Assembly: GCA_015233115.1 (NCBI GenBank)
Contig: JADFYJ010000005.1
Span: forward strand, 22,359 to 86,358
Length of the DNA: 64,000 nucleotides
Direction of reading: 5' to 3'
Source of the DNA: Candidatus Omnitrophota bacterium
Lineage (GTDB): Bacteria > Omnitrophota > Gorgyraeia > Zapsychrales > Zapsychraceae
The notes under the pieces were generated by a model that saw only the letters and a list, made by a program, of their open reading frames with translations, made no database searches and had not been told where the DNA came from. Positions 18,217 through 59,987 of the stretch are shown here, piece by piece (position 1 is the first letter of the stretch; every line of letters begins with the position of its first letter). The position numbers and the translations under genes are program-made.

Positions 18217-18358
18217 TATGTAGTGCGTAGTATGTCGTATGTAGCAAAAACGAAAATAAAAAATAAATTTTTTTCAAAAAACAATCCGTAAATCAACTTT
18301 GTGTTTTTTTCAGCCAATCGCGTTTTTTCACCACATACTACATACCACATACTACATA
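18217..18358. repeat. Heptamer inverted-repeat element (GTATGTA family): arm GTATGTAGTGCGTAGTATGTCGTATGTAGCAAAAACGAA, AT-rich spacer, core CCAATCGCGTTTTTT, arm CACCACATACTACATACCACATACTACATAC
   Basis: Arms are tandem 7-nt units in inverted orientation. Lies between the htpX start and the RNase-J-like stop (the arm overlaps the stop codon). Confidence 0.75.
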
Positions 18359-19765
18359 CTAAAAAATAAATTCTTGTCCCAACTTTGGTATTAATATATT
18401 TGCAAAACCAAATTTTTCTAACGCGGTTTTGAGTGCTTGCTGACGGTCGATTTCACCGTGAACTAAAAAAATGGTTTGAATTTTTTTAATACTTTGGTTA
18501 GAAATGTAAGCCATTATTTCGGTTTGATCCGCGTGCGCGCTGAACGAATCCATGACTTCAATTTTGGCTTTGACTTGTTTCATTTCTCCAAACATCCACA
18601 CTTCTTTCGCCCCATCCCGTAATTCAGCGCCGATCGTTCCTTTAGCACAGTATCCAACAATTAAAATAGTCGTGTTCGCTTCTTCAATGTGATTAGCCAC
18701 GTGATGTTTAATCCGTCCGGCATTGATCATGCCTGACGCGCTTATAATAATAGCCGGCCCTTGAAGGGCGTTTAATGCTTTTGAATCTTCCAAATCGCGG
18801 ATATATTTTAAACCATTAAAACCAAACGGATCCGGGTCTTTTTTTATATATTCAACCATATCTTTATCAAAACATTCCGGGTGATTCCTGAAAATATCCG
18901 TCGCGCTGACTGCCAAAGGGCTGTCCACATAAACAGGAATATTCGGCATTTTACGTTCATTCGCGAATTGATCTAAAAGATAAATAATTTCTTGTGTCCG
19001 TCCGACACTAAAAGCAGGTATCAATAATTTACCCTTATTAACTACGCACGTTTGTTTAATAATTTCTAACAGCCGATCTGCATCTGAATGAATATTCTCA
19101 TGTTCCTGTCCGCCATAGGTGGATTCAGTAATCAAATAATCCAGCTGATCCATACGTACCGGATCTTTTAAAATCGGACGGTTAGGCCTGCCGATATCTC
19201 CGGTAAATCCGAATACTTTTTCCTGGTCAAGTTCAACCTTGACTTTTAAGGTTATACTCGCGCTGCCAATGATATGACCGCTGTCCTTAAACACTGCTGT
19301 CGCATGGTCATTTAATACTACGGCCTGTTCATAATCCACGCTTTCAAACAATTTCATACAGTCTTCTACATCTTTATCAGAATATAACGCTACCGCGGGT
19401 TCAGTCGCGTTCCGGCGGCGGTGATCTTTATTCGCATATTCAGCGTCGCGCATTTGAATCTTGGCACTGTCTAACAACATGAGCGCAGCCAAATCTTTCG
19501 TCGCGGAGGTGCAGATAATCCGCCCGTGAAAGCCGTTTTTGACCAAAAGCGGAATTCTGCCGCAATGATCAATGTGCGCGTGTGTCAGCAATAAGCAATC
19601 AATTTTAGCCGGATCAAACAACCACGAACGATTAAGCTTTTCCGTGTCTTGTTCTGCGCCTTGATGCATACCGGCGTCCACCAAAATGGAATAGCCATTG
19701 TCTAAAACCAGCATATGACAACTGCCCGTGACTTCTTGATCTGCTCCGCAAAATTTTAGTTTCAT
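18359..19765 (-). CDS. MBL-fold beta-CASP ribonuclease (RNA-metabolising metallo-beta-lactamase, RNase J/CPSF73-like)
   Basis: 468-aa ORF with LTHAHIDHCGRIP (HxHxDH) and beta-CASP/RMMBL blocks downstream. Confidence 0.75.
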   Translation of the reverse strand: MKLKFCGADQEVTGSCHMLVLDNGYSILVDAGMHQGAEQDTEKLNRSWLFDPAKIDCLLLTHAHIDHCGRIPLLVKNGFHGRIICTSATKDLAALMLLDSAKIQMRDAEYANKDHRRRNATEPAVALYSDKDVEDCMKLFESVDYEQAVVLNDHATAVFKDSGHIIGSASITLKVKVELDQEKVFGFTGDIGRPNRPILKDPVRMDQLDYLITESTYGGQEHENIHSDADRLLEIIKQTCVVNKGKLLIPAFSVGRTQEIIYLLDQFANERKMPNIPVYVDSPLAVSATDIFRNHPECFDKDMVEYIKKDPDPFGFNGLKYIRDLEDSKALNALQGPAIIISASGMINAGRIKHHVANHIEEANTTILIVGYCAKGTIGAELRDGAKEVWMFGEMKQVKAKIEVMDSFSAHADQTEIMAYISNQSIKKIQTIFLVHGEIDRQQALKTALEKFGFANILIPKLGQEFIF

Positions 19766-19782
19766 AATAATATCAAAAATTT

Positions 19783-19896
19783 AGTTGATGGTTTTTGGTT
19801 GTTAGTTTTTGGTAAACAGTTCACAAAACAATCGCTTTTTCTCTGTTACTCTGTCACTTTACCACTCTCTACTTTGTACTCTGTGCTCTCTACTTT
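19783..19896. repeat. Heptamer repeat element (TTGATGGTTTTTGG / TACTCTG family) with core ACAATCGCTTTTTC, 5' of the RNase-J-like gene
   Basis: AGTTGATGGTTTTTGGTTGTTAGTTTTTGGT ... CAATCGCTTTTT ... CTCTGTTACTCTGTCACTTTACCACTCTCTACTTTGTACTCTGTGCTCTCTACTTT. The right arm runs into the SpoIID C-terminus. Confidence 0.7.
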
Positions 19897-21036
19897 ATCT
19901 AATTGTTCTAAATCCGCGCCGGGATAATAAAGTTCTAATATTTTTTTATAATCAAAGCCTTCTTTAGCCATTTCATACGCGCCCCATTGCGACATCCCTA
20001 CGCCATGGCCCCAGCCTTTTCCTACCACATCAAAATAAAATCCCTGCATAACAATATCATAATTATTACTGCGGATATCATTAGGCCCAAGAATATCCCG
20101 GAAATCCTTACCCGTCAACAGCACAAATTTCCCGTCACTGTCTATCACTTTGATCTTGCGGATACGGCCGCTATCATTGCGCTCCACCACTTCAATATTG
20201 ACAATCGGACCAGCCGGATACCCTTTGGCATTCAGGCGTTTTTGAACATCAGCTGATTTAAAATTTTTCTTCCAAGTATAATTTTTTCCAAAACGCGAAT
20301 AAGGGTCAGGCACGCCCCTCAACGGAGACAAATCATGATGATTCCACAGCTCCGCGGCATCTTCTGTATGATCGCCGGAATTGGAATGAAAATACGCGGG
20401 AAGAATACTGCCCCGATAGGTTAATACTTCACCTTTGGTTCCATCAACCGCTAAACTGGTGCGGAACCTTTCCGCATTGCGTCCACCGTATACTTGAGAA
20501 TAAATATCCGTTTTAACGTCATAATCCTGTTTGACATTTTCATGCGCCTGATAAACAGCGTAAGAACGGGCGGCCACAGCCTGGGCTTTCATGGCGTCCA
20601 TCGGCCAGCGGTCCGTCACTTCGTGATATAGAACGCCTTTGATATATGTTTCCAAATCCAGATGATTTACCAGATTGAATTTAATTTTATCCTTGATGAT
20701 TATATCGACAGCTCCCCGGTATCGTTTACGTTCTCCATTGTCGAGGTAAATAGTAATGTCTTGACTGGAATCAATGCGGATGCGGTTGCCACGGAAAAAT
20801 CGTTTTCCAATATAAATAAAATTACCACGGGAAAGAACGCGGGATTTATGAAGAGCATCTCCTTCAAATATCGTGGCCTTCGCCTTTTGATCAATAATCC
20901 GATAATGACCACTGGCCGATACCACAATGTTATCCAGATTTTCCATGACCAAAACACGGATGTCCGGCGATTCGATAGCGCGCACGATACACGTGTTACA
21001 AAATAACAATATAAATAAAATTAAAAATTTTTTCAT
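19846..21036 (-). CDS. SpoIID/LytB-domain protein (amidase-enhancer family)
   Basis: Signal peptide from MKKFLILFILLFCNTCIVRA. SpoIID blocks ...YSQVYGG... and ...FHSNSGDHTEDAAELW. The C-terminal KVESTEYKVESGKVTE is encoded by the 7-nt repeat element, so the stop may be later than the functional end. Confidence 0.7.
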   Translation of the reverse strand: MKKFLILFILLFCNTCIVRAIESPDIRVLVMENLDNIVVSASGHYRIIDQKAKATIFEGDALHKSRVLSRGNFIYIGKRFFRGNRIRIDSSQDITIYLDNGERKRYRGAVDIIIKDKIKFNLVNHLDLETYIKGVLYHEVTDRWPMDAMKAQAVAARSYAVYQAHENVKQDYDVKTDIYSQVYGGRNAERFRTSLAVDGTKGEVLTYRGSILPAYFHSNSGDHTEDAAELWNHHDLSPLRGVPDPYSRFGKNYTWKKNFKSADVQKRLNAKGYPAGPIVNIEVVERNDSGRIRKIKVIDSDGKFVLLTGKDFRDILGPNDIRSNNYDIVMQGFYFDVVGKGWGHGVGMSQWGAYEMAKEGFDYKKILELYYPGADLEQLDKVESTEYKVESGKVTE

Positions 21037-21066
21037 AATAAACCCATGGAACACCGCGTCGGAGTC

Positions 21067-21282
21067 CTAAAGGCCACCGGCGCGGTGTTTAATTTTTAAG
21101 ATCAACGTAATTATAACGCTTATTAAAATACACGTTGCTAAAGGAAAATAAAACGTAAAATTTTCTTTTTTGATCAAAATATCGCCGGGCAAACGGCCGA
21201 GGCCTATTTTACTTATCAGAGGCCAAGCTACTCCGATTAGAACAACGATTAGCCCTAAATAAATTAATAATTTTTGCATTTT
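21067..21282 (-). CDS. DUF2905-family small membrane protein
   Basis: Internal start MQKLLIYLGLIVVLIGVAWPLISKIGLGRLPGDILIKKENFTFYFPLATCILISVIITLILK matches the DUF2905 hallmark LGRLPGDI...FYFP. The track ORF (to 21393) has an unlikely N-terminal extension. Confidence 0.55.
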   Translation of the reverse strand, partial: KMQKLLIYLGLIVVLIGVAWPLISKIGLGRLPGDILIKKENFTFYFPLATCILISVIITLILKIKHRAGGL

Positions 21283-21348
21283 CTTAACCGCGTACGCTGT
21301 TTTATTATTTATTAAATAACAGAGTAATTCTATCTTCGCGTTAATTTT

Positions 21349-21474
21349 CAAACCGCGTGCCCAGACACAAGGTTTGCGTTTAAACCGAATCACCGAGCGA
21401 GTTCAGCTCCGCTTCGGAGCTGCTGTTTGAGCGAATGATTTGGTTTAAATGCTAACCGCTCTACCGCGCGCTTT
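21349..21474. repeat. ~126-nt structured repeat element, copy 1 (long imperfect hairpin with conserved internal motifs CCGAGCGAGTT / TTGTTTGAGCGAA and inner stem CAGCTCCG-CTT-CGGAGCTG)
   Basis: About 90% identical to 31585-31713. A diverged third copy at 58357-58430 has compensatory stem changes. Possibly an ncRNA or MITE/REP-like element; strand unknown. Confidence 0.6.
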
Positions 21475-21485
21475 ACAGTTCAACT

Positions 21486-22487
21486 CTACGCTTTTTTAAT
21501 ATGTTTCACCGCTTCTTCTGTAATTTCTCGACCTCGCGAAGTCCGCCGTAAAAATCCAATTTTTAATAAAAACGGCTCAACTACATCGACCAGCGTATCT
21601 GTTTCTTCATTCAATGTAGCAGCTAAAGTTTCAATACCGACCGGTCCGCCTTTGTATTGCTGGTGCAAAATTTTTAATAAACGGCGGTCGAGTTCATCCA
21701 AGCCGTATTCATCAATGCCTAAAGTCCCCATCGCATTGCGGACCAGATTGATTTCAACCTCAGCTTTACCAGTTTTCACTTGCGCGTAATCCCGCATCCG
21801 GCGGAACAAACGGTTCGCGATGCGCGGTGTTCCTCTAGCGCGCCGGGCAATTTCTAAAGCCGCGTCATCAGCCATCAACACATTTAATTTTTTAGCAGAA
21901 CGCAGGACAATCTCTTTTAATTCCTGCGGCTCATAAAATTCCAGATGATAAAAAAGTCCAAACCGGTCCCGTAACGGCGAAGCCAATAACCCGCTACGTG
22001 TTGTTGCCCCAATTAATGTAAAAGGTTTTAAACTAAAATTGATCGTCTTAGCGAATTGTCCTTTATCAACGATAAAATCGACTTTAAACCCTTCCATGGC
22101 TGGGTAAAGAAACTCTTCCACGGTTTTCGAAAGCCGATGGATTTCATCAATAAATAATATATCCCCTTGTTCTAAATTCGTTAAAATCCCGATTAAATCT
22201 CCGGCACGTTCAATAGCTGGTCCGGAGGTAACAGTAATTCTCGCGCTCATCTGATGCGCGACAATATTGGCCAATGAGGTTTTTCCCAACCCCGGGGGAC
22301 CGGAAAACAACATATGCTCAACCGGTTCATTGCGGTGCTTGGCCGCCTCAAGCGCGACTTTTAAATTAGCCACAACATCTTTCTGCCCGACAAATTCATC
22401 GAGAGATGACGGACGCAATGACAAACTATAAACCCGGTCTTCTTCATTTTCCTGATTAAAAACTATGCGTTTACGTTCTTCTTCCAT
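21486..22487 (-). CDS. ruvB: Holliday junction branch-migration helicase RuvB
   Basis: 333-aa ORF: Walker A GPPGLGKTSLA, DEIHRL, and a winged-helix C-terminus. Canonical RuvB. Confidence 0.9.
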   Translation of the reverse strand: MEEERKRIVFNQENEEDRVYSLSLRPSSLDEFVGQKDVVANLKVALEAAKHRNEPVEHMLFSGPPGLGKTSLANIVAHQMSARITVTSGPAIERAGDLIGILTNLEQGDILFIDEIHRLSKTVEEFLYPAMEGFKVDFIVDKGQFAKTINFSLKPFTLIGATTRSGLLASPLRDRFGLFYHLEFYEPQELKEIVLRSAKKLNVLMADDAALEIARRARGTPRIANRLFRRMRDYAQVKTGKAEVEINLVRNAMGTLGIDEYGLDELDRRLLKILHQQYKGGPVGIETLAATLNEETDTLVDVVEPFLLKIGFLRRTSRGREITEEAVKHIKKA

Positions 22488-22701
22488 AATTTTGTTAAGT
22501 GATAAACGGGGTAAAGGTGATAAATGTATAAAGGTTCAAAAAACTCATATTAAAAACCCTCACAATAAAAATGCAATCCTAAACAATTTAAACAAGCCGA
22601 TATGCAAACAATAAATCAAAAATTGCTAAAAAAATTAATTTAAATTATCATCTTATATAATATTCATTTCATAAAACAATTTGCTTTTTCAATCAGAAAT
22701 C

Positions 22702-23487
22702 TTAATCATTAATTTTTCCATCAAACGCATTTTCCTTTACTACCTCTACCGCGTTTACCACCTCTACCACTACACGAATGATTTCAATATTTTCAAACGC
22801 GCGTTTTTGAACAGCTTTAATTTGTTTTAGCCGGATGAGCTCCAGGATCGCCAAAAATGTTACTACAATTTCCATCTTAGACCGGCAATGGCCGAATAGT
22901 TCGTTTAAATACATACGCTCCTGATCCAGCAAAGTTTCTGTAATATATTGAACTTTTGATTCAACCGTGTACTCTTCTTTCATGATTTCATGAACCAAAT
23001 CTTCAGGGATCTTTTTCAAAGCCTCGGACAGCGCGCTGATCAGGTCGAAAAGATTAGTATCATGATAAACTTCTTTAGCTTCTTCCTTCCACTGTCTTTT
23101 TTGTTCATCATCCGGCGGACGTGGGAATAAATCTTTGCGGGCTTTTTCTTTCTGTTCCAGTTCTCCGGCTATTTCTTTAAATCTTTGATATTCAGCTAAT
23201 CTGCGGATGAGCTCTTCTTTAGGATCGTCAGGATTCTTTTCTTCTTCATTGTTTTCCAGCGGCAGGAGCATGCGGGATTTGATATGCATCAAAGTAGCGG
23301 CCATAACCAAAAAATCGCCGATCAGATCCAGGTCAAGAATCTGCATTACTTCTATAAATCTCATATATTGCTCAGTGATCGACGCAATAGGAATATTCTG
23401 GATATCAAGATCATTTTTCCGGATCAGATAAAGCAACAGATCCAATGGGCCTTCAAAAATGTCAAGACGGATTTTATATCCCATCAA
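22702..23487 (-). CDS. scpA: Segregation and condensation protein A
   Basis: 261-aa ORF, N-terminus ...DIFEGPLDLLLYLIRKNDLDIQNIPIASITEQYMRFIE is the ScpA signature. Confidence 0.8.
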   Translation of the reverse strand: MMGYKIRLDIFEGPLDLLLYLIRKNDLDIQNIPIASITEQYMRFIEVMQILDLDLIGDFLVMAATLMHIKSRMLLPLENNEEEKNPDDPKEELIRRLAEYQRFKEIAGELEQKEKARKDLFPRPPDDEQKRQWKEEAKEVYHDTNLFDLISALSEALKKIPEDLVHEIMKEEYTVESKVQYITETLLDQERMYLNELFGHCRSKMEIVVTFLAILELIRLKQIKAVQKRAFENIEIIRVVVEVVNAVEVVKENAFDGKIND

Positions 23488-24461
23488 AAAATAACCTCTT
23501 TGATTTCCGCGATTGTCTGCTTCGCGATTAAAGACGCCTTTTTACGACCTTCCTCCAAAATATCCCAAACCTTTGCGCGGTCTTTGGCATATTTTTCACG
23601 GCGTTCGGTGATCGGCTTCAAATAGTCGACCAGCACTTCCGCCAATATTTTTTTGCAATCCGTGCAGCCCTTTTGAGCGTTCACGCACCACTCTCTCACT
23701 TCTGATGTTTTCTCCGGAGCAAAAATGGAATAATAACTAAACACATTACATTCATCCGGGTGGCCCGGGTCTTTTAAACGTAATCGTTGTGGATCCGTGA
23801 ACATGCCTTTGACTTTGGCGCGTATTTCATCGGGAGTATCCGCTAAATTAATGGCATTCTGATAACTTTTGCTCATTTTCCGGCCGTCTAATCCTAATAA
23901 CCGGGGTGTTTGAGTCAGAATCGCTTCACAATCCGTAAAATATTCTGTTTTAAAAATATGGTTAAAACGGCGACTGATTTCTCTGGTCAATTCCAAATGC
24001 GGCAGTTGATCTTCGCCGATCGGCACCGCATTCGCTTTATACAAAAGAATATCCGCGGCCTGCAAAACCGGATAACCTAAAAATCCGTAAGTCTGCAGAT
24101 CTCTCGTCGTGATCTCACGTAACTGTTCCTTATAGGTCGGATTACGTTCAAGCCATCCTAATGGGGTGATGCAAGAAAAAATCATCTGCAATTCCAGATG
24201 TTCAGGCACATGGGATTGAACGCAAAAAATAGCGCGGTCCGGGTCTAAGCCGCAAGCCAGCCAGTCAATCACCATATCGACAGTATTTTCTTTTAATACT
24301 TTGCTGTTCTCATATTCACCCATGAGCGCGTGCCAATCAGCTACGCCGAACACGCAGTGATATTTATCCTGAAATTCCCGCCAATTACTGAGGGCTCCAA
24401 CTAAATGGCCCAAATGCAATTTGCCGGTCGGCCGCATGGCACTATAAACCCGTTTCATCAT
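23484..24461 (-). CDS. trpS: Tryptophan--tRNA ligase
   Basis: 325-aa ORF with HIGH-type TGKLHLGHLVG and KMSKS motifs. Confidence 0.9.
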   Translation of the reverse strand: MMKRVYSAMRPTGKLHLGHLVGALSNWREFQDKYHCVFGVADWHALMGEYENSKVLKENTVDMVIDWLACGLDPDRAIFCVQSHVPEHLELQMIFSCITPLGWLERNPTYKEQLREITTRDLQTYGFLGYPVLQAADILLYKANAVPIGEDQLPHLELTREISRRFNHIFKTEYFTDCEAILTQTPRLLGLDGRKMSKSYQNAINLADTPDEIRAKVKGMFTDPQRLRLKDPGHPDECNVFSYYSIFAPEKTSEVREWCVNAQKGCTDCKKILAEVLVDYLKPITERREKYAKDRAKVWDILEEGRKKASLIAKQTIAEIKEVIF

Positions 24462-26923: not shown

Positions 26924-27090
26924 AAAAGTTAAATTCCTTGTAAAGGTTAAAAGTGAAAAGTGAAAAGTGAAAAGTGAACGCTTTTCACATCAATCGCTTT
27001 TTCATCTATCGTCTATCTTCTTTTGACTCTGTACTTTGTACTCTATACTCTCTACTTGTTTTCCAGCCCCTCCTCTGTTGAGCCCCCGCT
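26924..27090. repeat. Heptamer repeat element ((GAAAAGT)x4 / TACTCTG family) with core CATCAATCGCTTTTTC, 5' of infB and overlapping the nusA 3' end
   Basis: AAAAGTGAAAAGTGAAAAGTGAAAAGTGAACGCTTTTCACATCAATCGCTTTTTCATC...CTCTGTACTTTGTACTCTATACTCTCTACTTG. Confidence 0.7.
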
Positions 27091-28125
27091 CATATCTTCA
27101 TTACTCTCTGCCGGCTCTGTCGCTTCTGCCGGTTCAGCAGGCTCAATAGCCTCTGCTGGTGTCGTGATGCCTTTTAATTCATTCCATTGTTTCAATGAAA
27201 ATAAATTTAGCTCCCATCCAACTAATTGACTGGCTAACCGGACATTTTGACCTTGCTTACCTATCGCGATCGAAAGCTGATCATCAGCGACGATAATATT
27301 AGCTTTTTTCTGCTGATAATTCAACTGAATTTGTGAGATCTCCGCTGGAGACAAAGACTGCTGAACATATTCTTTAATATCATCTGAATACCGGACAATA
27401 TCAATGCGCTCCCCTTGGAGCTCATTCACAATGTTTTTAACCCGGGAACCGCGCATACCAACGCATGCGCCCAAACAATCAATCTTCTCATCTTTAGAGT
27501 TAACCGCGATTTTAGTCCGGTCGCCGGCATCACGAGCAATGCCTTTGATCTCAACAATGCCCTCGTAAATTTCCGGCACTTCTAATTCAAATAGCCGTTT
27601 TACAAAATTAGCATGGGCGCGGGACAAAATAACCTGAGGTCCTTTATTATCTCTGCGGACTTCCAGAACATACGCGCGGATCCGATCTCCTTGACGAAAA
27701 TCATCTTTAGGTGACTGCTCTTTCTTAGGTAAATACGCTTCCGCTTTTCCCAAATCAACGATAATATTCCCTTTTTCAAAACGGTACACGGCCCCAGAAA
27801 TTATCTGGCCGATTTTCAATTGATATTCATCAAAAACGACACCTTTTTCAGCTTCGCGGATCTTCTGGATCACGACTTGTTTAGCGGTTTGCGCAGCAAT
27901 ACGGCCAAACTCACTAGAGCGGATTTCTTTCCCATTCGCGTAGGCTTTAATTTCACCGCTCTTAGCATCGAGTTTAACAATCACTTCTTCGCTGTCATCC
28001 ACAGTCCATAATTTCCGCGCCGCAGTCGCCACAGCTGATTCAACTGCCTCAATCAAGACCTGTTTATTAACGCCTTTATCGCGCTCTAACTGTTCTAATA
28101 TAACCAACAAATCATTATTTGCCAT
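27052..28125 (-). CDS. nusA: Transcription termination/antitermination factor NusA (C-terminal acidic EPAEPAEATEPAE tail)
   Basis: 357-aa ORF with S1 and KH domains (...GACVGMRGSRVKNIVNELQGERIDIV...). The last ~30 codons overlap the heptamer-repeat element. Confidence 0.9.
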   Translation of the reverse strand: MANNDLLVILEQLERDKGVNKQVLIEAVESAVATAARKLWTVDDSEEVIVKLDAKSGEIKAYANGKEIRSSEFGRIAAQTAKQVVIQKIREAEKGVVFDEYQLKIGQIISGAVYRFEKGNIIVDLGKAEAYLPKKEQSPKDDFRQGDRIRAYVLEVRRDNKGPQVILSRAHANFVKRLFELEVPEIYEGIVEIKGIARDAGDRTKIAVNSKDEKIDCLGACVGMRGSRVKNIVNELQGERIDIVRYSDDIKEYVQQSLSPAEISQIQLNYQQKKANIIVADDQLSIAIGKQGQNVRLASQLVGWELNLFSLKQWNELKGITTPAEAIEPAEPAEATEPAESNEDMSGGSTEEGLENK

Positions 28126-28190
28126 TGTCCAACCCTTTCCTGTCGTATTCTAATATATTTAAAAATTTTAATGTTTGTTTCTATTTTTCT

Positions 28191-28240
28191 CACCAATCGC
28201 TTTTTCTTCTGACATCTGACCTTCTGACTTCTGACCTTAC
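28191..28240. repeat. Heptamer repeat element (CTGACMT family) with core CACCAATCGCTTTTTC, 5' of nusA
   Basis: CAATCGCTTTTTCTTCTGACATCTGACCTTCTGACTTCTGACCTTACAGG. Confidence 0.65.
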
Positions 28241-28245
28241 AGGTT

Positions 28246-29960: not shown

Positions 29961-29978
29961 TTAAGACTCCAATTTTTT

Positions 29979-30264
29979 TAGTATGTAGTATGTGGTATAT
30001 GGTATGTAGTAAAAACGAATTTGTTTTAATAAAAGCGAAACCAATAAACAATAAAAAACGCTTTAACAACAATCGCTTTTATTTTTCACCAAACCACATA
30101 ACACTTACTACATTTAATTATCAAATAATTTTTTTTAATACACGCTTTTCCAGCAATCGCTTTTCGCTACATGCTACATGCTATACAAATAAATTTTTAA
30201 GCTTTCCCATCAATCGCTTCTCGCTACATACTACATACTACATGCTACATGCCACATGCTATAC
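29979..30264. repeat. Compound heptamer inverted-repeat element (GTATGTA family) with three core copies (30062-30076, 30151-30166, 30201-30216), 5' of proS
   Basis: Left arm TAGTATGTAGTATGTGGTATATGGTATGTAGTAAAAACGAAT. Right arms CTACATGCTACATGCTATAC and CTACATACTACATACTACATGCTACATGCCACATGCTATAC. Confidence 0.75.
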
Positions 30265-31537: not shown

Positions 31538-31790
31538 TAGTAACAAAGTAACCGAGTAACCGAGTAACAAAGTAAAAACTAATCAAACCGCGTGCCCATA
31601 CACAAGGTTTACGTTTAAACTGAATCCCAGAGCGAGTTCAGCTCCGCTTCGGAGCTGCTGTTTGAGCGAAGGATTCGGTTTAAATGCAAACCGCCCAACC
31701 CGCGCGCTTTATATATTCATAGAAATTTTTTAATCATTAAGTAACAGAGTAACCGAGTAACAGGGTAACAGGGTAACAGAGTAACAGAAT
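31538..31790. repeat. 8-nt tandem arrays (GTAACMRR) in direct orientation at 31538-31578 and 31741-31790, flanking structured-element copy 2
   Basis: GTAACAAAGTAACCGAGTAACCGAGTAACAAAGTAAAAAC and GTAACAGAGTAACCGAGTAACAGGGTAACAGGGTAACAGAGTAACAG. Confidence 0.7.
31585..31713. repeat. ~129-nt structured repeat element, copy 2 (same as 21349-21474), bracketed by direct 8-nt GTAACMGR tandem arrays
   Basis: AAACCGCGTGCCCATACACAAGGTTTACGTTTAAACTGAATCCCAGAGCGAGTTCAGCTCCGCTTCGGAGCTGCTGTTTGAGCGAAGGATTCGGTTTAAATGCAAACCGCCCAACCCGCGCGCTTTA. Confidence 0.6.
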
Positions 31791-34065: not shown

Positions 34066-34165
34066 AATTTCGGTTGATGGTTTTTGGTTGTTGGTTTTTG
34101 GTCAACAACATTTTTAAGCAATCGCTTTTTCGTCCATCATCCCGCGGCCTTCATCCCTCGTATAT
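34066..34165. repeat. Repeat element homologous to 19783-19845 (TTGATGGTTTTTGGTTGTTGGTTTTTGGT plus core AGCAATCGCTTTTTC), 5' of dxr
   Basis: About 80 nt of the dxr 5' leader is near-identical to the RNase-J-like 5' leader. Confidence 0.7.
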
Positions 34166-38396: not shown

Positions 38397-38413
38397 AAAG
38401 CCCTCTCTGTTTT

Positions 38414-38446
38414 GTTAGCGGGCGATCAGGTGATCGCCCCTACGAC
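38414..38446. repeat. GC-rich REP-like palindrome, copy C (GTTAGCGGGCGATCAGGTGATCGCCCCTACGAC)
   Basis: Same unit as 10212-10240 and 10312-10340 with a single loop substitution (AGGT vs AGGA). Confidence 0.65.
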
Positions 38447-38552
38447 AAAATGTATATTTTATCGAATATTTTGTATTCCCAAAAGTAACATAAGCCGTTT
38501 TTAAAGTCAAGTTATTTCTACCTAAAACTATTAAAAACAATAAGATACAGCA

Positions 38553-39842: not shown

Positions 39843-39968
39843 GTATGTAGTATGTCGTATGTGGTATGTGGTTAAAAATATAAGCAAAACAAAAAAAACA
39901 ATAATTTTTATACGCTTTTTTTCATCAATCGCTTTTTGCTACATACCACATACCACATACTACATACC
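39843..39968. repeat. Heptamer inverted-repeat element (GTATGTA family) with core CATCAATCGCTTTTTGC, 5' of purA
   Basis: Arms AGTATGTAGTATGTCGTATGTGGTATGTGG and CTACATACCACATACCACATACTACATACC are reverse complements. Confidence 0.75.
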
Positions 39969-39971
39969 AAA

Positions 39972-41656: not shown

Positions 41657-41863
41657 AGTATGTGGTACGTAGTATGTCGTATGTAGTAAAAACAATAAAC
41701 GAGCAATAAAAAAATTAACAAAACCGATAAATTAATAAAATGTCATCTTCTCAATTTTACTGGGAAAATTTTAAAATCTAATTATGTTTATAATCTTTGT
41801 TATTTATTTTATTATTCATCAATCGTTTTTCTCTACATACAACATACCACATACTACATACGC
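41657..41863. repeat. Heptamer inverted-repeat element (GTATGTA family) with core CATCAATCGTTTTTC and ~120-nt AT-rich loop, 5' of serA
   Basis: GTATGTGGTACGTAGTATGTCGTATGTAGTAAAAACAAT ... CATCAATCGTTTTTCTCTACATACAACATACCACATACTACATAC. Confidence 0.75.
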
Positions 41864-46667: not shown

Positions 46668-46850
46668 TAAAGAAAATAGACGATAGATAATAGAAGATAG
46701 AAAAACATCGATTAATTTTTAAATAGACAAGACAGCAAACACAGTGCCGCAAAACACAATAAATCTTCGAATATTTTCATCTCTATCGTTGTTATTCTTT
46801 CTTTTTCTATTTTCTATTCTCTATTCTCTCCCATCTATCTTCTAATTTGT
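46668..46850. repeat. Heptamer inverted-repeat element (AGATAGA / TCTATYC family), 5' of kdsC
   Basis: AGAAAATAGACGATAGATAATAGAAGATAGAAAAA ... TTTCTATTTTCTATTCTCTATTCTCTCCCATCTATCTTCT. Confidence 0.65.
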
Positions 46851-48649: not shown

Positions 48650-48691
48650 TTTATTATCTCTATCAATTTAATCCCGTGATCGCGCGCGATT

Positions 48692-49420: not shown

Positions 49421-49440
49421 GTCTTATCCTCATATTTAAT

Positions 49441-49780
49441 AGTAACCAAGTAACCGAGTAACCGAGTAACAAAGTAACAGCATAAAAACTATTGGTTTTA
49501 AAAAACACAAAACCAGGAAAAATATATTTTAATAGTAAACATGTAAATAAAGTAACAAAGCAAAAACATAAAAACGCTTGGTTCTAAAGAACATAAAACC
49601 TAAAAAACATATAATAAACATTTATTTTATAAAATTATTCTTTTGAGAAACACAAACAATTTTTATTTTATTCCGGTTATCCAAGCTTTTATGCTTTAAT
49701 TTCTGATTCTTCTTTTATCCATTCGCTTTTGCTCTGTTACTCGGTTACTCGGTTACTTGGTTACTTTTTAATAGCGTCTA
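49441..49780. repeat. 8-nt repeat inverted-repeat element (GTAACCRA family) with core ATTCGCTTTTGCT and ~240-nt AT-rich loop, between the rfaE-like gene and kdsB
   Basis: AGTAACCAAGTAACCGAGTAACCGAGTAACAAAGTAACAG ... GCTCTGTTACTCGGTTACTCGGTTACTTGGTTACTTTTTA (reverse complement). Confidence 0.7.
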
Positions 49781-50774: not shown

Positions 50775-50849
50775 ACCCTGCCTTTATTATATAAATTGAA
50801 TCAAAACGAAGCCAAATTGTAACATACTTTGATAAGAGCGTCAACGGCC

Positions 50850-50878
50850 TTGACAACAGAAAAAACATGTGGCATATT
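50850..50878 (+). promoter_or_regulatory. Candidate sigma70 promoter for the first FG-GAP gene (TTGACA-17 nt-CATATT)
   Basis: TTGACAacagaaaaaacatgtggCATATT lies 50 nt upstream of the ATG at 50929. RBS AAGGAA is 9 nt upstream of the start. Confidence 0.3.
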
Positions 50879-50928
50879 TGATAAAATTTACCTAACAATA
50901 TAAACAAACCCTTAATTAAGGAACTCAA

Positions 50929-52980: not shown

Positions 52981-52998
52981 ACGTTTCTTTCCCATCCC

Positions 52999-53034
52999 GC
53001 CTCCGGTAGACAAAAGTCTCCCGGAGGCTTTTAT
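52999..53034 (+). terminator. Rho-independent terminator after FG-GAP paralog 1
   Basis: GCCTCCGGtagacaaaagtctCCCGGAGGC followed by TTTTAT. Confidence 0.65.
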
Positions 53035-53200
53035 AGCCAATTAAAGTAACCGCTTTCGCTAAAACGGTCCTACCCCCTTTTTTTTTATTAAAAGCCATGG
53101 CAAACTTAAAGTATGGAAAGCGTGTCTTATAAAACCAGTATTGTTAAAAAAATACATGAGTTTTATTAATATGAATCAAATACAACACAGGAGAGCAAAT

Positions 53201-55930: not shown

Positions 55931-55945
55931 TAAATTCTTATTAAC

Positions 55946-55982
55946 CCGCCTCTGACGGAAAATATCCGTCGGAGGCTTTTTA
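55946..55982 (+). terminator. Rho-independent terminator after FG-GAP paralog 2 (homologous to the one after paralog 1)
   Basis: CGCCTCTGACGGaaaatatCCGTCGGAGGC followed by TTTTT. The flanking aaagtaaacgctttcc block is also shared with the first intergenic region. Confidence 0.65.
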
Positions 55983-56100
55983 AGATAGTTTAAAGTAAAC
56001 GCTTTCCCCAAAACGCTTTTACACTCTTTTTATTTTTCAAATTACCATATATACTTTAGACATGAATATAAATGTTGGCAAACACCAAAGGAGCTGGAAA

Positions 56101-57876
56101 ATGAAAAAAATTTATTTACTGTTAGTTTTACTGTTAGTAGCGTTTAAGCCTGCTTTTGGATCTGTCATTAATAACATCGGCTTAGACCCAACCCAAAAAA
56201 CTTCAGATCCAGTTTCAGCCGATTTGTTTAACAATGGACAAAAAGAAGTCATCTACACTCAAAATGGCCAAGTCTACGCTTACGATAAAAACGGAATTAT
56301 CCCAGGCTTTCCCTGGAAACATACATACTTTAATGCTGCTTCTTCTTTAGCTATCGTAGATTTATACGGCGATGGTAATAAATATGTTATTGGAGGTTGT
56401 TACAATAAAACAGCCGGCAACGAAGTTTGTGTATACGATTCACATGGTGTTGCTCCTCATGGATGGCCCCAGAAAGTCTCAAGTTATATTGGTGGTGCGC
56501 CAGCTATTGCGGATTTAGATAATAATCATCAAAAAGAAATTATAGTCGCCACAAATATGCAGGTTTATATTTTCAATTCTGATGGGAAGTTGCGGTCTAA
56601 CTGGCCTAAAACGGTGGAATTTACTGGTAGGCCTGGTGTGATTGGCATGAATGGAGTGAGTACCAGCCCTGTTATCGCGGATATGGATGGAGATGGTGCA
56701 TTAGATATCATAGTAGCAACTACCAGCGGATTAATTAATGTTTGGAATAAAGATGGAAACTTAATTCACAAATATTATGGAACTTATATGTTAGGGACCG
56801 CACCTGCGGTTGCCGATTTAAATCAAGACGGTAAAAATGAAATAGTTTTCGGTGATCAAACCTTGAATAATTCCTACAACTATGTAGGTAACATCTATGT
56901 TTATAAAAAAGATGGCAAGCTAGTCTGGAAAAAACCAATTGAAGGCGGATTAGCACATTCTTCTCCGGTCATAGGCGATTTGGATAAGGATGGCAAATTA
57001 GAAATTGTGGCGACAGGAAGTGAAGGAAAAGTATATGTGTTCAAAGCTGATGGTTCTCTCATGCCAGGTTGGCCGAAATCTATTCCTGGCCAAATTGCCA
57101 CGTCCCCGGTTTTATTAGATATTTTTCAGGATAAAAAATTAGAGATAGTTGTCACGGCAAAAGATGGAAACGTATATTTTTGGAATTATGAGGGAACTTT
57201 AGTTCCATTTCAAAGTGGTAAAAATCCAATGCCCAATCCGATGCGCATATTACCACAAGGTAATGTATTAAACTCTCCGGTTTTTGGTGATTTTTATGGC
57301 GATGGGTATTTGGATATCGTAGCTGTTGCAGGCAACTCTATTGCTAATTGGGAATTACCGCCCTATAAAACAACTTTACCTTGGTCAACCCCTGGGTATG
57401 ATTTTCAACGAACAGGATATTATTCTTACAAAAGTAATGACGCGGAAATTGTTATTTACAACCAACAACCCAAAAATGGTTCAGTCACTTTAAACGATTC
57501 TGTAACTTTAAATGTTAAAGTCACGAATAATGGCTATGACACATGGAAAAGCGGTTATGATGTCGTAACGAAAAAGTTTAATGACAACGCCTATGATTGC
57601 CGCCCCCATCTTTATGCTTCAAAAGGCAACCTATTAAAATGGGACTTATACGTGGCAACAGGTCTCGATAAAAACAAAAAATATTACGGGAATGACTTCG
57701 GAAAAGATGTAAAACCTGGTGAAAGTGTTTTAATGACATTAATCATTCCTACCACCGGACAAAATGCCGCATTATTTAAAAAAGGCTCCTCATATCGCCT
57801 CGGCGTTGACGTGGTCCATGAAACTGTCGCATGGTTTGGACAAGAAGTGAAATCAGCGGCTTTTACAATTAAATAA
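56101..57876 (+). CDS. Secreted FG-GAP/beta-propeller repeat protein with one C-terminal Ig-like module, paralog 3
   Basis: Start at ATG 56101 (RBS AAAGGAGC; signal peptide MKKIYLLLVLLLVAFKPAFGS). Same repeats, including GWPQ and ADLDNNHQKEIIVAT-type loops. Confidence 0.7.
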   Translation: MKKIYLLLVLLLVAFKPAFGSVINNIGLDPTQKTSDPVSADLFNNGQKEVIYTQNGQVYAYDKNGIIPGFPWKHTYFNAASSLAIVDLYGDGNKYVIGGCYNKTAGNEVCVYDSHGVAPHGWPQKVSSYIGGAPAIADLDNNHQKEIIVATNMQVYIFNSDGKLRSNWPKTVEFTGRPGVIGMNGVSTSPVIADMDGDGALDIIVATTSGLINVWNKDGNLIHKYYGTYMLGTAPAVADLNQDGKNEIVFGDQTLNNSYNYVGNIYVYKKDGKLVWKKPIEGGLAHSSPVIGDLDKDGKLEIVATGSEGKVYVFKADGSLMPGWPKSIPGQIATSPVLLDIFQDKKLEIVVTAKDGNVYFWNYEGTLVPFQSGKNPMPNPMRILPQGNVLNSPVFGDFYGDGYLDIVAVAGNSIANWELPPYKTTLPWSTPGYDFQRTGYYSYKSNDAEIVIYNQQPKNGSVTLNDSVTLNVKVTNNGYDTWKSGYDVVTKKFNDNAYDCRPHLYASKGNLLKWDLYVATGLDKNKKYYGNDFGKDVKPGESVLMTLIIPTTGQNAALFKKGSSYRLGVDVVHETVAWFGQEVKSAAFTIK

Positions 57877-57890
57877 AAATGATATTATCA

Positions 57891-57929
57891 AAAAACGGCT
57901 TTGGCGATATTGACCAAAGCCGTTTTTTA
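57891..57929. terminator. Bidirectional terminator hairpin between convergent FG-GAP paralog 3 and arfB
   Basis: AAAAAACGGCTTTGGcgatattgaCCAAAGCCGTTTTTT, with A-run and T-run on either side. Confidence 0.65.
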
Positions 57930-57937
57930 TTTCTCCT

Positions 57938-58303
57938 TTATTCCCAATCTCGAGAATTTATTCTTAGCTTCTTTTTTTCTGATCTAATATGTTTAGCTTC
58001 AAGCATTTTTTCCTTGGCGGATTGGGAAAGTTTACGGTTTTTGCGGCGCTCTTTTTCTTTAGCGGTGATAATGACACTCCGCTCTTTCTGCTCCCTCTGC
58101 TCAAGCTTACTTAATAACATCGCCCGCGCCGTAATACGGTTTAAAGCCTGATTTCGTTCTTTCTGGCATTTAACCTGAATACCGGTCGGAATATGATAAA
58201 GCACCACACAAGTAGCGACTTTATTAACATTCTGCCCGCCAGCCCCTGACGAACGGACAAACGTCTCCTTAATATCTTTCTCTAAAATTTTAATATGCGG
58301 CAT
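57938..58303 (-). CDS. arfB: Alternative ribosome-rescue factor ArfB (peptidyl-tRNA hydrolase, GGQ domain)
   Basis: 121-aa ORF with GGQ motif in ...[18 protein letters not shown]... and a basic C-terminal tail. Confidence 0.8.
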
Positions 58304-58356
58304 ACGCTTTTTTATTATATTTAGATCATGCCATGACTAAAAAAAGGGCAGTGTTA

Positions 58357-58430
58357 AAATCATGTCCCAGAGCGAGTTTCCTTGGCGCTTCGCCAAGGTT
58401 GTTTGAGCGAAGGACAGGATTTTAATAGTG
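58357..58430. repeat. Diverged third copy of the structured element (core only): CCCAGAGCGAGTT-[CCTTGGCG CTT CGCCAAGG]-TTGTTTGAGCGAAGGA, with a new outer stem AAAATCATGTCC/GGACAGGATTTT, nested in a further 10-bp inverted repeat (58327-58338 / 58432-58443)
   Basis: Flanking motifs are identical to copies 1 and 2. The 8-bp stem is completely replaced yet still pairs, and the CTT loop is retained. Confidence 0.55.
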
Positions 58431-58461
58431 ACCGATCAAGCCGTCATGGCATTCCACCATG

Positions 58462-58773
58462 TTATACAAATGAACAACAATAATCTGTGCCTTTAATAAT
58501 TTTCACTTTAAATTTGGAAGACCCCGTTACTTCAAAGGATTCGCCGCCTTTAATTTTTTTCCAAACCGTCTGCCCCGGCAATAACACCTCAAGTTCACCC
58601 GACATAATCTCCATAATCTCCGGCGCATTCGTACCGAATTCATATTCACCCGGAAGCATAAACCCCAAAGTTTTAGTAGACCCATCAGCAAATTTAATCG
58701 TCCGACTCACCACTTTAGCCTCAAAATACACATTAGCTTTTTTAACAACTGTTACATTAGTGAATTCACTCAT
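58462..58773 (-). CDS. ppnP: Pyrimidine/purine nucleoside phosphorylase PpnP (DUF1255 cupin)
   Basis: 103-aa ORF, ...VYFEAKVVSRT...LGFMLPGEYEFGT..., matching the YaiE/PpnP family. Confidence 0.7.
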   Translation of the reverse strand: MSEFTNVTVVKKANVYFEAKVVSRTIKFADGSTKTLGFMLPGEYEFGTNAPEIMEIMSGELEVLLPGQTVWKKIKGGESFEVTGSSKFKVKIIKGTDYCCSFV

Positions 58774-58795
58774 GTTCCCATCTCCTATTAGATTA

Positions 58796-59821
58796 CTAAA
58801 TAATTAATTTTTTAATGATTGGAAAAACTTCTTCCGGAGTTATTTTTTTAAGATACACGCTTTCGCCATCTCCGGCCTTAAGAAACGACACAGACATATC
58901 CTTAGGCGGGGCAATAAAAAGCGACTTTTCACCTAACGGATACCACCGCTCCGGATTAATACCCGGCTGATTACGGACAAAAATCGCGACGACTGGAGCA
59001 TTAAGGGCTGCGGCAATATGGATCGGGCCTGAATCATTAGAAATCAAAATATCTGACTGTTTAATCAAGCTCACTAATTGACTAACGCTGGTCTGAGAAG
59101 TAAGATCAACAACATCAGAACATTGCTTAATAATTATTTCAGCTTTATGCTGTGCCTCAAAATTTCCGACTAGCACACAAACCGCATTCCACTCTTGTTT
59201 AACCATATTGATCAACTGAACAAAATATTCAGCCGGCCATACTTTCCCCGGATCACTTGCCCCTACATGAAATAAAACCTTCTTTTTCCCCTCTTTAAAC
59301 TTATCCTTCCAAAACTTTTCTGCCCACTGTTGTGCCGCAGGATCAATCGAAATATGCAGTTCCAAATCACCCTGTTCTACACCTAAAACTTTCAGCAAAT
59401 CTAAACAATATTGACTCTCATGAACTTCTCCCAAATAACGATGATCTTCTACCGGTATCGTTAACAAAGATCCAGCATGTTTATCTTTATATCCACACCG
59501 CGCAGGTATTCCCGCAAAATATACCAGCCAATTCGTCCAACGTTTTGTGTGATAAATAACCGCCAGATCAAATTTACGTTTTCGGATTTCAAAAACTAAT
59601 TTCCAAAATCCCCAAAAACCATTATGCCGTCCTTCCCGATCGACCATCAAAATTTCATTCACATAAGGATTCTGAAACACCAGAGGATATGTGACAGAAC
59701 TAACTAACAAAGATATCTTTGCTTCTGGATAAGCAAGCCGCAAAGCTTTAAATGCCGGAGTCGTCAAAATCACATCGCCGATACGATCAGTGCGGACGAC
59801 TAAAATGTTCTTAAAATTCAT
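58796..59821 (-). CDS. GT9-family glycosyltransferase (LPS heptosyltransferase-like), first of four
   Basis: 341-aa ORF with N-terminal ILVVRTDRIGDVILTTPAFKAL and C-terminal GNDSGPIHIAAAL, the GT9 WaaC/WaaF hallmarks. Confidence 0.8.
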   Translation of the reverse strand: MNFKNILVVRTDRIGDVILTTPAFKALRLAYPEAKISLLVSSVTYPLVFQNPYVNEILMVDREGRHNGFWGFWKLVFEIRKRKFDLAVIYHTKRWTNWLVYFAGIPARCGYKDKHAGSLLTIPVEDHRYLGEVHESQYCLDLLKVLGVEQGDLELHISIDPAAQQWAEKFWKDKFKEGKKKVLFHVGASDPGKVWPAEYFVQLINMVKQEWNAVCVLVGNFEAQHKAEIIIKQCSDVVDLTSQTSVSQLVSLIKQSDILISNDSGPIHIAAALNAPVVAIFVRNQPGINPERWYPLGEKSLFIAPPKDMSVSFLKAGDGESVYLKKITPEEVFPIIKKLII

Positions 59822-59840
59822 AAGGTCTATTCCTAAAAAA

Positions 59841-59987
59841 GTATGTAGTATGTGGTATGTCGTATGTAGTAAAAGCGAATGATAAAAGTAAAAATGCCAG
59901 TTAATAAAAACTCAAAAAATTATAAAACAAATATATATAACCCATCGCTTCTCAGAAAAAATTTTTACTCCCACCTACTACATACTA
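59841..59987. repeat. Heptamer inverted-repeat element (GTATGTA family) with degenerate core CCCATCGCTTCTC, between two GT9 genes
   Basis: GTATGTAGTATGTGGTATGTCGTATGTAGTAAAAGCGAATG ... CCACCTACTACATACTAAAT. Confidence 0.65.

Follow-up and report, generated by a model that had tools for sequence, protein, structure and literature searches.

What are the short tandem repeats, many of them in facing pairs, that fill one gene junction after another in a housekeeping operon? The question is raised by a stretch of 64,000 nucleotides from a Candidatus Omnitrophota bacterium (contig JADFYJ010000005.1, positions 22,359 to 86,358), which was analyzed as a whole and is called the window below. Its G+C content is 40.6%, the minus strand carries nearly all of its genes, the G/C skew is steady and 10.5% of the sequence is intergenic. 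Between 18 and 60 kb, tandem arrays of 7-9 nt units were found at 12 or 13 gene junctions, which amounts to about 13 copies in 42 kb. The repeat family is real, dense and well delimited, and lies far above chance. The reading that we favor, and to which we give slightly more credence than doubt, is that the copies belong to a lineage-specific family of small non-coding dispersed repeats, similar to foldback elements or to bacterial interspersed mosaic elements (BIMEs), that reside in non-overlapping intra-operon junctions.

Abundance and architecture of the elements

Tandem Repeats Finder detected arrays with 7-8 nt units at all 12 coordinates where an earlier note, made from the letters of this DNA, had placed such elements, and the claim of at least 12 intergenic regions in the 64 kb was thereby borne out. 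In total the window holds 21-22 arrays with a period of 6-9 nt and at least three copies, a density of 3.3 per 10 kb as compared to 0.53 per 10 kb in a control of 833 kb of unrelated bacterial DNA. Array pairs with reverse-complement units occurred 6-7 times in the window versus once in the entire control. A gapless inverted-repeat search returned seven members with arms of 24-49 nt that were 78-90% complementary; matches started at 18215, 29972, 39843, 41658, 46678 and 49433, and the arms were separated by 55-243 nt. The elements, labeled E1 to E13 and described individually further on, span 45-341 nt, with stems of 28-49 bp.

On the gene strand, the intergenic regions that were read follow a common order. 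After the upstream gene's stop codon come a G-rich arm A of about four tandem units of 7-9 nt, the core GAAAAAGCGATTGnTG, an AT-rich stretch, sometimes a weak inverted core (TTCGTTTTTAC), a C-rich arm B and the next gene. Each A array is G-rich on the gene strand and abuts or overlaps the stop codon, and each B array, C-rich on the same strand, is situated upstream of the start, with 5-30 nt including a Shine-Dalgarno sequence between arm B and the ATG. The length of the AT-rich center varies among the elements, and a second AAAGCG is often found 15-17 nt past the core. The earlier note had proposed a single architecture for all loci, in which inverted arrays enclose a core. This description fits some seven loci (E1, E5, E8, E9, E10, E11 and E12); at E2, E3, E4 and E7 the arrays are non-complementary or single, and E6 consists of direct arrays with no core. 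The compound nature of the locus upstream of proS was confirmed, with three cores at 30078, 30162 and 30219. The idea that each locus has a unit of its own did not hold, as about eight unit families recur at several loci in different combinations: GTATGTA at five loci and GTAACNGA, CCAAAAAC, ACAGAGT and GATAGA at two loci each.

The exact 9-mer AAGCGATTG within the core occurs eight times in the window, and all eight copies are intergenic and on the gene strand. A hidden Markov model (HMM) of the core found 12 copies, near-matches included, in 10 junctions; again all were intergenic and all on the minus strand, which is the gene strand here. Nor was the core motif equally common inside genes and on both strands of the window, since GCGATTG was counted 16 times on the minus strand (10 intergenic) and twice on the plus strand (none intergenic). 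The claim of a constant core therefore stands for the right-hand, oriented copy. The left-hand core, GTAGYAAAAACGAAT, is limited to three positions (18241, 30006 and 59866), its GTAG is part of the GTATGTA array, and inverted core partners score near noise in the HMM; E6 has no core and E10 no canonical one. The best-conserved cores occur in E2, E3, E4 and E7 despite the non-palindromic arms of these elements, and in all four the distance from the core to the downstream ATG is 72-77 nt.

Folding of the sense RNA was compared to that of shuffled sequences. Six palindromic members gave z-scores of -4.6 to -11.8, and E2, E3, E4 and E7 folded no better than shuffled sequence. The mismatches within the arms comprised 12 G-T and 12 A-C pairs and thus no strand-specific excess of G-U pairs, which indicates that the lower folding energies of the sense strand stem from the loops and not from the arms.

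Gene junctions and comparison with relatives

Elements are present in 13 of the 26 co-directional junctions of the window that exceed 60 nt and in none of the 28 that are shorter or overlapping, and all copies lie between co-directional genes. The downstream or adjacent genes are housekeeping genes such as infB, nusA, proS, dxr, purA and serA. Window junctions with canonical terminators or promoters (37269 and 38397) are free of elements; the promoter at 38397-38552 reads TTGACT-17-TACTTT and is conserved in relatives.

The nearest other NusA proteins share 77-81% identity with that of the window, and a NusA-anchored protein search of GTDB genomes gave no close relative. The comparison set consisted of the loci around the same gene cluster in eight Omnitrophota relatives. 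Their common gene order is serA-purA-ompA-x-uppS-cdsA-dxr-rseP-T2SSE-proS-rimP-nusA-infB-trpS-scpA-ruvB-DUF2905-spoIID, and the complete run from uppS to ruvB is kept in L001, L003, L004, L130, L131, L132 and L133. Across the eight loci, orthologous junctions are for the most part 1-80 nt long, and none of them has the core of the window. Those equivalent to E3-E7 measure 1-80 nt and hold no arrays and no core; at the cdsA/dxr site, which is occupied by E7 in the window, the distance is 1-2 nt. Because the orthologous junctions in the relatives are short and lack arrays and core, we regard E3-E7 as gains in the lineage of the window. The ancestral junctions being tiny, an insert spans the entire distance from the stop codon to the ribosome-binding site, and this accounts for the location immediately 5' of gene starts as well as for the overlap with 3' codons. 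The rule that every copy lies just 5' of a gene start is correct as far as it goes, yet each copy lies equally 3' of the previous gene; the elements occupy entire intra-operon junctions. Arrays running into the 3' codons of the upstream gene had been reported for SpoIID, NusA and the beta-CASP gene, and were seen in these three as well as in ScpA and T2SSE.

The NusA protein of the window (27052-28125) has 357 amino acids and lacks the C-terminal HhH domain of most Omnitrophota relatives (398-429 amino acids). Its C-terminal end coincides exactly with the start of E3. The NusA of one relative (P0070) is likewise short, with 352 amino acids.

In four of the relatives, other junctions of the cluster hold inverted arrays whose units, 7-14 nt long, are unrelated to those of the window. 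In L131 (35% G+C) they were found at trpS/scpA, scpA/ruvB and queA/tgt, in L133 (41% G+C) at queA/tgt, at tgt/trmD and after trmD, and in L130 at infB/trpS; the queA/tgt junction of L001 has 4 + 4 units back to back with no loop. The queA/tgt junction is thus filled by three different unit types in three relatives. Since L131 has an inner core of its own, the AAGCGATTG core appears specific to the family in the window. L003, L004 and L132 have the same operon without such elements. In L130 the queA/tgt junction (12317-12414) holds GGGGCGCCC-type palindromes in place of arrays, which suggests that the kind of palindromic element drawn to this junction differs among Omnitrophota.

Two further observations were made outside the comparison set. 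A control locus from a Pyrinomonadaceae metagenome-assembled genome (L066, 5248-5323) contains an inverted pair of GAGTCGA / CTCTCGA heptamers, so the inverted-array architecture also seems to occur in Acidobacteriota. A scan of JGI metagenomes with an array-plus-core pattern gave 12 matches, none of which is a member of the family. Among these, the contigs L119, L120, L124 and L126 (36-38% G+C) are chance matches that represent a different repeat, with long CTGCAACAC-type arrays of 8-9-mers between two 27-nt boxes that are related to each other, ATGTAGGAACAAGCGATTGGTGTTGAC and CTGTAGGGGCAAGCGGCTGGTGTTGAC.

Descent and recombination of the copies

Several copies resemble each other in ways that go beyond the repeat unit. 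In the five GTATGTA elements both arms and the core can be aligned and the loops cannot, and each of their B arms has four units in which the variant bases are similarly distributed. A nearly identical block of 40 nt, in which the variant units follow the same order, is common to the B sides of E6 and E11, and the two arms of E11 mirror one another unit for unit, unit variants included. E2 and E7 share 86% identity over the stretch that leads from the core to the ATG, but their A arrays are unrelated; more generally, an identical 12-mer core adjoins unrelated arrays at different loci. In the compound locus E5, the region 29961-30258 contains three halves composed of arm A and core in tandem, followed by a single half composed of inverted core and arm B.

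We take these patterns to show that the copies descend from common ancestors and that arms are inherited as blocks. They also show, by the same kind of evidence, that half-elements made up of arm A and the core undergo tandem duplication and give rise to chimeras by recombination. Where paralogues differ in unit number they do so by whole units, as in E6 (4) versus E11 (5) and in the arrays of E5 (5, 2 and about 3). In the GTATGTA family the unit number is nearly constant at about four per arm, from which we conclude that ongoing expansion by slippage is modest. The recurrence of variant order, blocks and tandem halves across loci points to copying, followed by chimera-forming recombination and an occasional gain or loss of whole units, and argues against independent growth in place.

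Individual elements

All elements are given on the minus strand. Among those with inverted arms, E1 (18215-18361) lies in the junction of the genes for a beta-CASP RNase and an M48 peptidase and belongs to the GTATGTA family. It consists of a B array (18215-18244), a weak inverted core (18241-18255), a core (18315-18326, CAATCGCGTTTT on the plus strand) and an A array (18330-18361) that overlaps the upstream stop codon. Its 36-nt arms are 81% complementary, and the sense RNA folds with -49.8 kcal/mol (z -8.2). E5 (29979-30261), in the T2SSE ATPase/proS junction, has a B array (29979-30011), an inverted core (30006-30020) and three cores (30070-30081, 30154-30165 and 30211-30222). Ahead of each of these cores on the gene strand stands an A array of the GTATGTA type (about 30082-30113, 30166-30183 and 30223-30261). 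The cleanest palindrome is E8 (39843-39969) between serA and purA, with a B array at 39843-39872, an exact core at 39926-39937 and an A array at 39941-39969. The arms of 35 nt are 89% complementary and enclose a 55-nt loop, and the sense fold has an energy of -52.2 kcal/mol (z -11.0).

E9 (41657-41861) lies between a class-V aminotransferase gene and serA and folds with a z-score of -6.7; its B array (41657-41688) and A array (41835-41861) accompany a core variant at 41820-41831 that reads AAACGATTG on the gene strand. E10 (46671-46843), in the junction of a SIS/CBS kdsD-like gene and kdsC, has inverted GATAGAA-type arrays (46671-46715 and 46792-46843), no canonical core and a z-score of -4.6. 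The lowest z-score, -11.8, was obtained for E11 (49433-49773), between a PfkB kinase gene and kdsB. Its GTAACCGA-type arms (49433-49481 and 49725-49773) are 49 nt long and 90% complementary with a loop of 243 nt, and a core variant is located at 49720-49731. E12 (59840-59987) separates two GT9 genes and is partly eroded: the B array (59840-59871) and inverted core (59866-59880) are accompanied by a degraded core (59942-59950, AAGCGATGG on the gene strand) and a decayed A array that extends to about 59987, and the fold z-score is -1.7.

The non-palindromic elements include E2 (19780-19894), in the SpoIID/beta-CASP junction, with a CCAAAAAC-type B array (19780-19813), an exact core (19829-19840) and an ACAGAGT-type A array (19841-19894). 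The A array codes for the final 16 or so residues of SpoIID, the tail of which reads DKVESTEYKVESGKVTE, and E2 has no predicted structure (z +1.0). In E3 (26949-27056), between nusA and infB, a (CACTTTT)x4 B array (26949-26978) and an exact core (26991-27002) are combined with a composite A array (27005-27056) of GATAGA and ACAGAGT types that overlaps the nusA stop codon; the fold z-score is -0.3. E4 (28194-28238) in the rimP/nusA junction is a half element, as it has an exact core (28194-28205) and a GTCAGAAG-type A array (28206-28238) but no B array (z +0.9). E7 (34068-34160), in the cdsA/dxr junction, contains a CCAAAAAC-type B array (34068-34102), an exact core (34119-34130) and a GGGATGA-type A array (34131-34160), with a z-score of -1.9.

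In E6 (31539-31788), the rseP/T2SSE junction is occupied by two direct GTAACNGA-type arrays (31539-31587 and 31740-31788; direct similarity 0.88) without a core. Finally, the scpA/ruvB junction at 22499-22770 probably harbors a thirteenth, degenerate member of the family, E13, built from 9-nt units that are 78% inverse-similar. Its parts are a B array (22499-22535), a core-like GAAAAAGCAAATTG at about 22680-22695 and an A array (22734-22770) that lies in frame within the 3' end of scpA and encodes VVEVV repeats.

Nature of the elements and alternative explanations

Among the roles suggested in the earlier note, a MITE-like element (MITE: miniature inverted-repeat transposable element) with repeat-built arms received the best support: variant order is shared between loci, core-bearing copies are absent from the orthologous junctions of relatives, and half-elements stand in tandem at 29961-30258. 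That role is weakened by the modest slippage and by the fact that neither target-site duplications nor a transposase were found in the window. If the elements are dispersed repeats, they would have spread through an enzyme acting in trans (transposition) or by recombination, with a strand or orientation preference. Their microsatellite-like arms would turn over by slippage and concerted evolution, so that arm families drift and the core remains unchanged; this proposed turnover would account for unrelated arms flanking an identical core. Between essential co-transcribed genes, only inserts that form a hairpin or are otherwise harmless would be expected to survive. In the operon mRNA, a stem of 28-49 bp would loop out the insert and bring the stop codon near the next ribosome-binding site. 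Such a stem may also hide the untranslated RNA from Rho, and may serve as a natural RNase III substrate or as a protector or barrier at 3' ends. The core shows CAAnnnnTT on the opposite strand; its most likely role is that of a recognition site, for either the mobilizing enzyme or an IHF-like nucleoid protein, and it is probably not a promoter.

Several points speak against dispersed repeats. Mobility is deduced from the distribution of the copies and was not itself seen. No consistent direct duplication was recognized by eye in the flanks of E1, E5, E8, E9, E12 and E7, where the flanks are A/T runs and arrays overlap stop codons, and genes for a transposase, a RAYT protein, IHF/HU or RNase III were not present among the 50 window proteins scanned. 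A scan of GTDB genomes for the core pattern gave at least 112 single matches in unrelated taxa; among the matches listed none stands beside a tandem array, which points to chance. Some eight arm families in one genome are hard to reconcile with a sequence-specific transposase that binds the arms. The mismatch types in the arms gave no positive signature of selection on a sense RNA stem. The contrast between conserved arms and core and unalignable loops could reflect selection for a host function, and so could the single orientation of the core and the distance of 72-77 nt that separates it from the ATG in each of the four short elements. Because all occupied junctions are on one strand, the orientation of transcription is inseparable from that of replication.

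Selection by the host is at the center of one alternative, in which the elements are intercistronic RNA modules whose stem is kept for RNase III processing, 3'-end protection or translational coupling and whose spread is secondary. We consider it unlikely, though to be reckoned with, and the probability that we assign to dispersed repeats overlaps with that of such modules. Tandem units would make the stem robust to insertions and deletions. RNase III needs a stem of roughly 20 bp, a length exceeded by the stems of the elements, and the folding of the six palindromic members, the conservation of arms and core but not of loops, and the recurrence of the architecture with unrelated sequences in four other Omnitrophota, in Geobacter and in Xanthomonas all agree with a function in RNA, as does the filling of queA/tgt by different unit types. 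A required stem is difficult to combine with E2, E3, E4 and E7, 4 of the 12-13 elements, which cannot form one and yet have the best-conserved cores. The balance of G-T and A-C mismatches, with no surplus of G-U pairs in the sense strand, and the relatives L003, L004 and L132 that run the same operon without elements also disagree with it. A broader form of the idea strikes us as rather improbable. It holds that inverted arrays of about four 7-9 nt units are a sequence-independent general architecture in Omnitrophota, Geobacter and Xanthomonas, selected as long double-stranded RNA stems between cistrons, with the core AAAAAGCGATTG as a dedicated recognition site of a protein by which the element is installed or read. 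By analogy, the elements would then be the bacterial counterpart of the intercistronic RNase III sites of phage T7 and would uncouple or tune the genes of an operon.

Protein binding could also be the primary role, with the arrays serving as sites for a nucleoid-associated or global regulatory protein, as proposed (IHF/HU) for G. metallireducens; we doubt this seriously. The most conserved part of the element is the oriented core, which on the plus strand reads CAATCGCTTT in 11 copies, none of them on the other strand. This sequence agrees with the CAAnnnnTT portion of the IHF consensus of E. coli, WATCAANNNNTTR, but deviates from the full consensus by mismatches at W and R, and the strict pattern has only 3 + 4 matches in the window. 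There is a resemblance to E. coli BIME-1 (RIP/RIB), in which a linker with an IHF site lies between two inverted repetitive extragenic palindromes (REPs), and a precedent in Geobacter (PMC2700814). The units are too different for one protein to bind all arms, and no IHF/HU gene was found in the window.

Internal promoter cassettes, in which the A5 tract and TTGnTG of the core form an UP-like element and a -35 box and arm B acts as a G-poor unstructured leader, are in our view very doubtful, and the suggested promoter or 5' untranslated region module was not upheld. An A-tract does lie at about -44 to -40 relative to a TTG, every core is oriented as the downstream gene, and the spacing of 72-77 nt to the ATG in E2, E3, E4 and E7 would suit a promoter. 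Three downstream genes moreover have no Shine-Dalgarno sequence and start right after a C/A/U-rich array. No consistent -10-like hexamer was found 16-18 nt after the TTG of the core, however, and a sigma-70 scan gave 55 and 63 sites compared to 49 and 50 in shuffled sequences, with only three weak sites touching elements. Genuine promoters of the window, such as that at 38397-38552, are canonical, and relatives have the same genes as tight operons.

Growth of the arrays in situ by replication slippage, with inversion by local template switching and no mobile element, has a very slim chance of being the explanation, and the same applies to a variant in which the arrays are phase-variable contingency switches. 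Heptamers are the commonest class of long simple-sequence repeats in prokaryotes, as summarized from Mrazek et al. 2007 in PMC4679880, and paralogues differ by whole units (E6 and E11, and the arrays of E5). Slippage alone would not place the same heterogeneous arrays, with the same variant order and non-repeat flanks, at different loci, nor an identical 12-mer core beside unrelated arrays, and the unit number is almost constant at four. The contingency switch proposed in the earlier note fails on location: the genes are housekeeping genes, and the arrays lie in their junctions or 3' tails, outside 5' coding regions and any recognizable promoter spacer.

Other candidates were dropped. On the gene strand, only a small hairpin in E3 (26988-26967) was flagged as an intrinsic terminator, and the match in E7 (34087-34109) is on the opposite strand. 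The stems of the elements are AT-rich with loops of 55-243 nt, as opposed to the short GC-rich stem, 3-8 nt loop and U-tract of a terminator; E8, E9 and E12 end in 4-6 T and may cause weak termination. The arrays are not CRISPRs, as had been recognized before, since the units are 7-9 nt, contiguous and without spacers, and no cas-like domains were detected in the 50 window proteins scanned. Integron attC sites were rejected because the genes are conserved operon members and not cassettes, Z-DNA because an alternation of purine and pyrimidine is confined to the GTATGTA unit, and G-quadruplexes because the arrays have no G runs. Rfam 15 gave no matches across the whole window at the gathering threshold.

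Comparison with known repeat systems

The Omnitrophota elements have paired inverted arrays of the Geobacter and Xanthomonas type, and with units within 5-11 nt, above-chance copy numbers and a mostly intergenic location they also belong to the long simple-sequence repeats. In G. metallireducens, 24, 21 and 8 pairs of 3-5 tandem octa- or heptanucleotide sites were described on opposite strands at variable distance, in the classes GTTGCTYN, TCTCCGTS[Y] and MTYCTGA, and some of the sites fall into two classes at once (Aklujkar et al. 2009, PMC2700814). The gap between proB and proA contains one such pair, and G. sulfurreducens lacks the sites (PMC2700814). The authors guessed, without a test, that they are IHF/HU sites, and insertion sequences insert at a fixed distance from them (PMC2700814). 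Both systems have paired opposite-strand arrays of 7-9 nt units, several unit classes per genome and a location in junctions of same-pathway genes, and the two-class sites are comparable to the chimeras in Omnitrophota. The Omnitrophota elements differ by their shared oriented core, for which no equivalent was reported in Geobacter, by AT-rich units, by a far higher density and by the lack of any insertion sequence seen in the window.

The GGGAATC arrays of Xanthomonas prefer four units and include 70-75 convergent inverted pairs that are able to form stem-loops (Rehm et al. 2015, PMC4692102). These arrays and the GGGGAYT repeats of Nostoc are 89-93% intergenic and lie mostly between co-directional open reading frames (ORFs); in Xanthomonas the G-rich strand adjoins the stop codon or overlaps with it, and the C-rich strand is found just upstream of the next ORF (PMC4692102). 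The Omnitrophota elements share this geometry, with a G-rich array at the stop codon, about four units and inverted pairs. In Xanthomonas and Nostoc, however, there is a single quadruplex-prone unit type per genome and no core was described, whereas the Omnitrophota arrays cannot form quadruplexes.

REPs are imperfect palindromes of 20-40 bp with an unpaired GTAG or CGTC tag, and REPs and BIMEs are modular extragenic mosaics, located for the most part between genes that are co-directional or convergent and downstream of coding sequences, whose paired inverted units form larger folds and for which mRNA stabilization, attenuation and nucleoid organization have been proposed (PMC3733652). The Omnitrophota elements likewise lie between co-directional genes, about seven of them with inverted arms around a conserved oriented core. 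They are not classical REPs, in agreement with the earlier note, because each arm is a tandem array instead of a tagged palindrome, GTAG occurs only within GTATGTA, one of about eight unit families, and no RAYT gene was seen in the window. Separate from the array elements, the window contains REP-like palindromes with a GTAG tag, (TT)GTAGGGGCGATCnCCTGATCGCCCGC. Two of them, between the MscS and redoxin genes (10210-10237 and 10315-10342), constitute a perfect inverted pair of 28 nt around a 77-nt loop, and a third one lies upstream of purA at about 38505-38535 (38510). With these palindromes, the genome appears to have classical-looking REPs in addition, distinct from the array elements.

In being small, AT-rich, non-coding and multi-copy (12-13), with terminal inverted repeats, the elements resemble bacterial MITEs such as Correia, RUP and BOX. 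Unlike in a typical MITE, the termini vary and an inner core is constant, and neither a target-site duplication nor a cognate transposase was found in the window. Correia elements insert into intergenic DNA, are co-transcribed with their neighbors and form RNase III-sensitive hairpins. The closest architectural analogue is found in the Foldback transposons, which are eukaryotic and have inverted termini made of tandem sub-repeats around a center that is variable or absent. A further likeness is to the intergenic tandem heptamers of Beggiatoaceae (TAACTGA) and cyanobacteria (STRR), which in contrast to the Omnitrophota elements are direct, have one dominant unit and lack a core. TAACTGA arrays lie a few nt from start codons, often where canonical ribosome-binding sites are missing (MacGregor 2015, PMC4679880), a placement resembled by E2, E7 and E10; in BOGUAY they are direct, with one inverted set among 170 (PMC4679880).

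Other repeats and neighboring genes in the window

A second, unrelated repeat family is present in three copies on the minus strand (about 21378-21462, 31600-31684 and 58334-58420), the 31.6-kb copy being situated between the two direct arrays of E6. Within outer inverted arms it has a conserved center, TTCGCTCAAACA-[stem, GAAG loop, stem]-AACTCGCTCTGGGA. The arm and inner-stem sequences of the 58-kb copy are different and still pair, with changes on both sides in 8 of the 22 predicted pairs. No Rfam match was obtained for this family, which may represent either a structured small RNA or another element that resembles a MITE.

Three plus-strand FG-GAP repeat genes are separated by two junctions (52981-53140 and 55931-56061), each with a strong GC-rich terminator that is followed by a common motif, TTAAAGTAAMCGCTTTC..AAAACG. 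At 56000 this motif reads CGCTTTCCCCAAAACGCTTT and looks similar to the double CGCTTT in the core of the array elements; it is on the same DNA strand, but sense to the FG-GAP genes. If it is related to the core, core orientation would follow the chromosome and not the gene.

The left part of the window, which is free of arrays, contains defense- or addiction-type genes (1-1162, 5270-6024, 6025-7444 and 11672-12703). They include an AbiEii-type nucleotidyltransferase toxin, an HTH-domain Fic/DOC protein and small ORFs that, read by eye, resemble two toxin-antitoxin pairs, one of them HigB/HigA. This segment breaks the spoIID-queA-tgt synteny of the relatives.

Significance

As far as the searched literature shows, these are the first such elements noted in Omnitrophota. 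The nearest precedents, in Geobacter and Xanthomonas, are passing observations and not explained systems. The Omnitrophota case is unusually dense and clean. Several arm families are carried on one oriented core, and half-elements, compound copies and chimeras are all visible. The elements also affect annotation, as they extend or replace protein C-termini (SpoIID, ScpA and possibly NusA) and create spurious ORFs. As the elements are situated in an essential operon with a conserved gene order, occupied and empty orthologous junctions can be compared directly, and the case makes mobility, cutting by RNase III and binding of a protein to the core directly testable questions.

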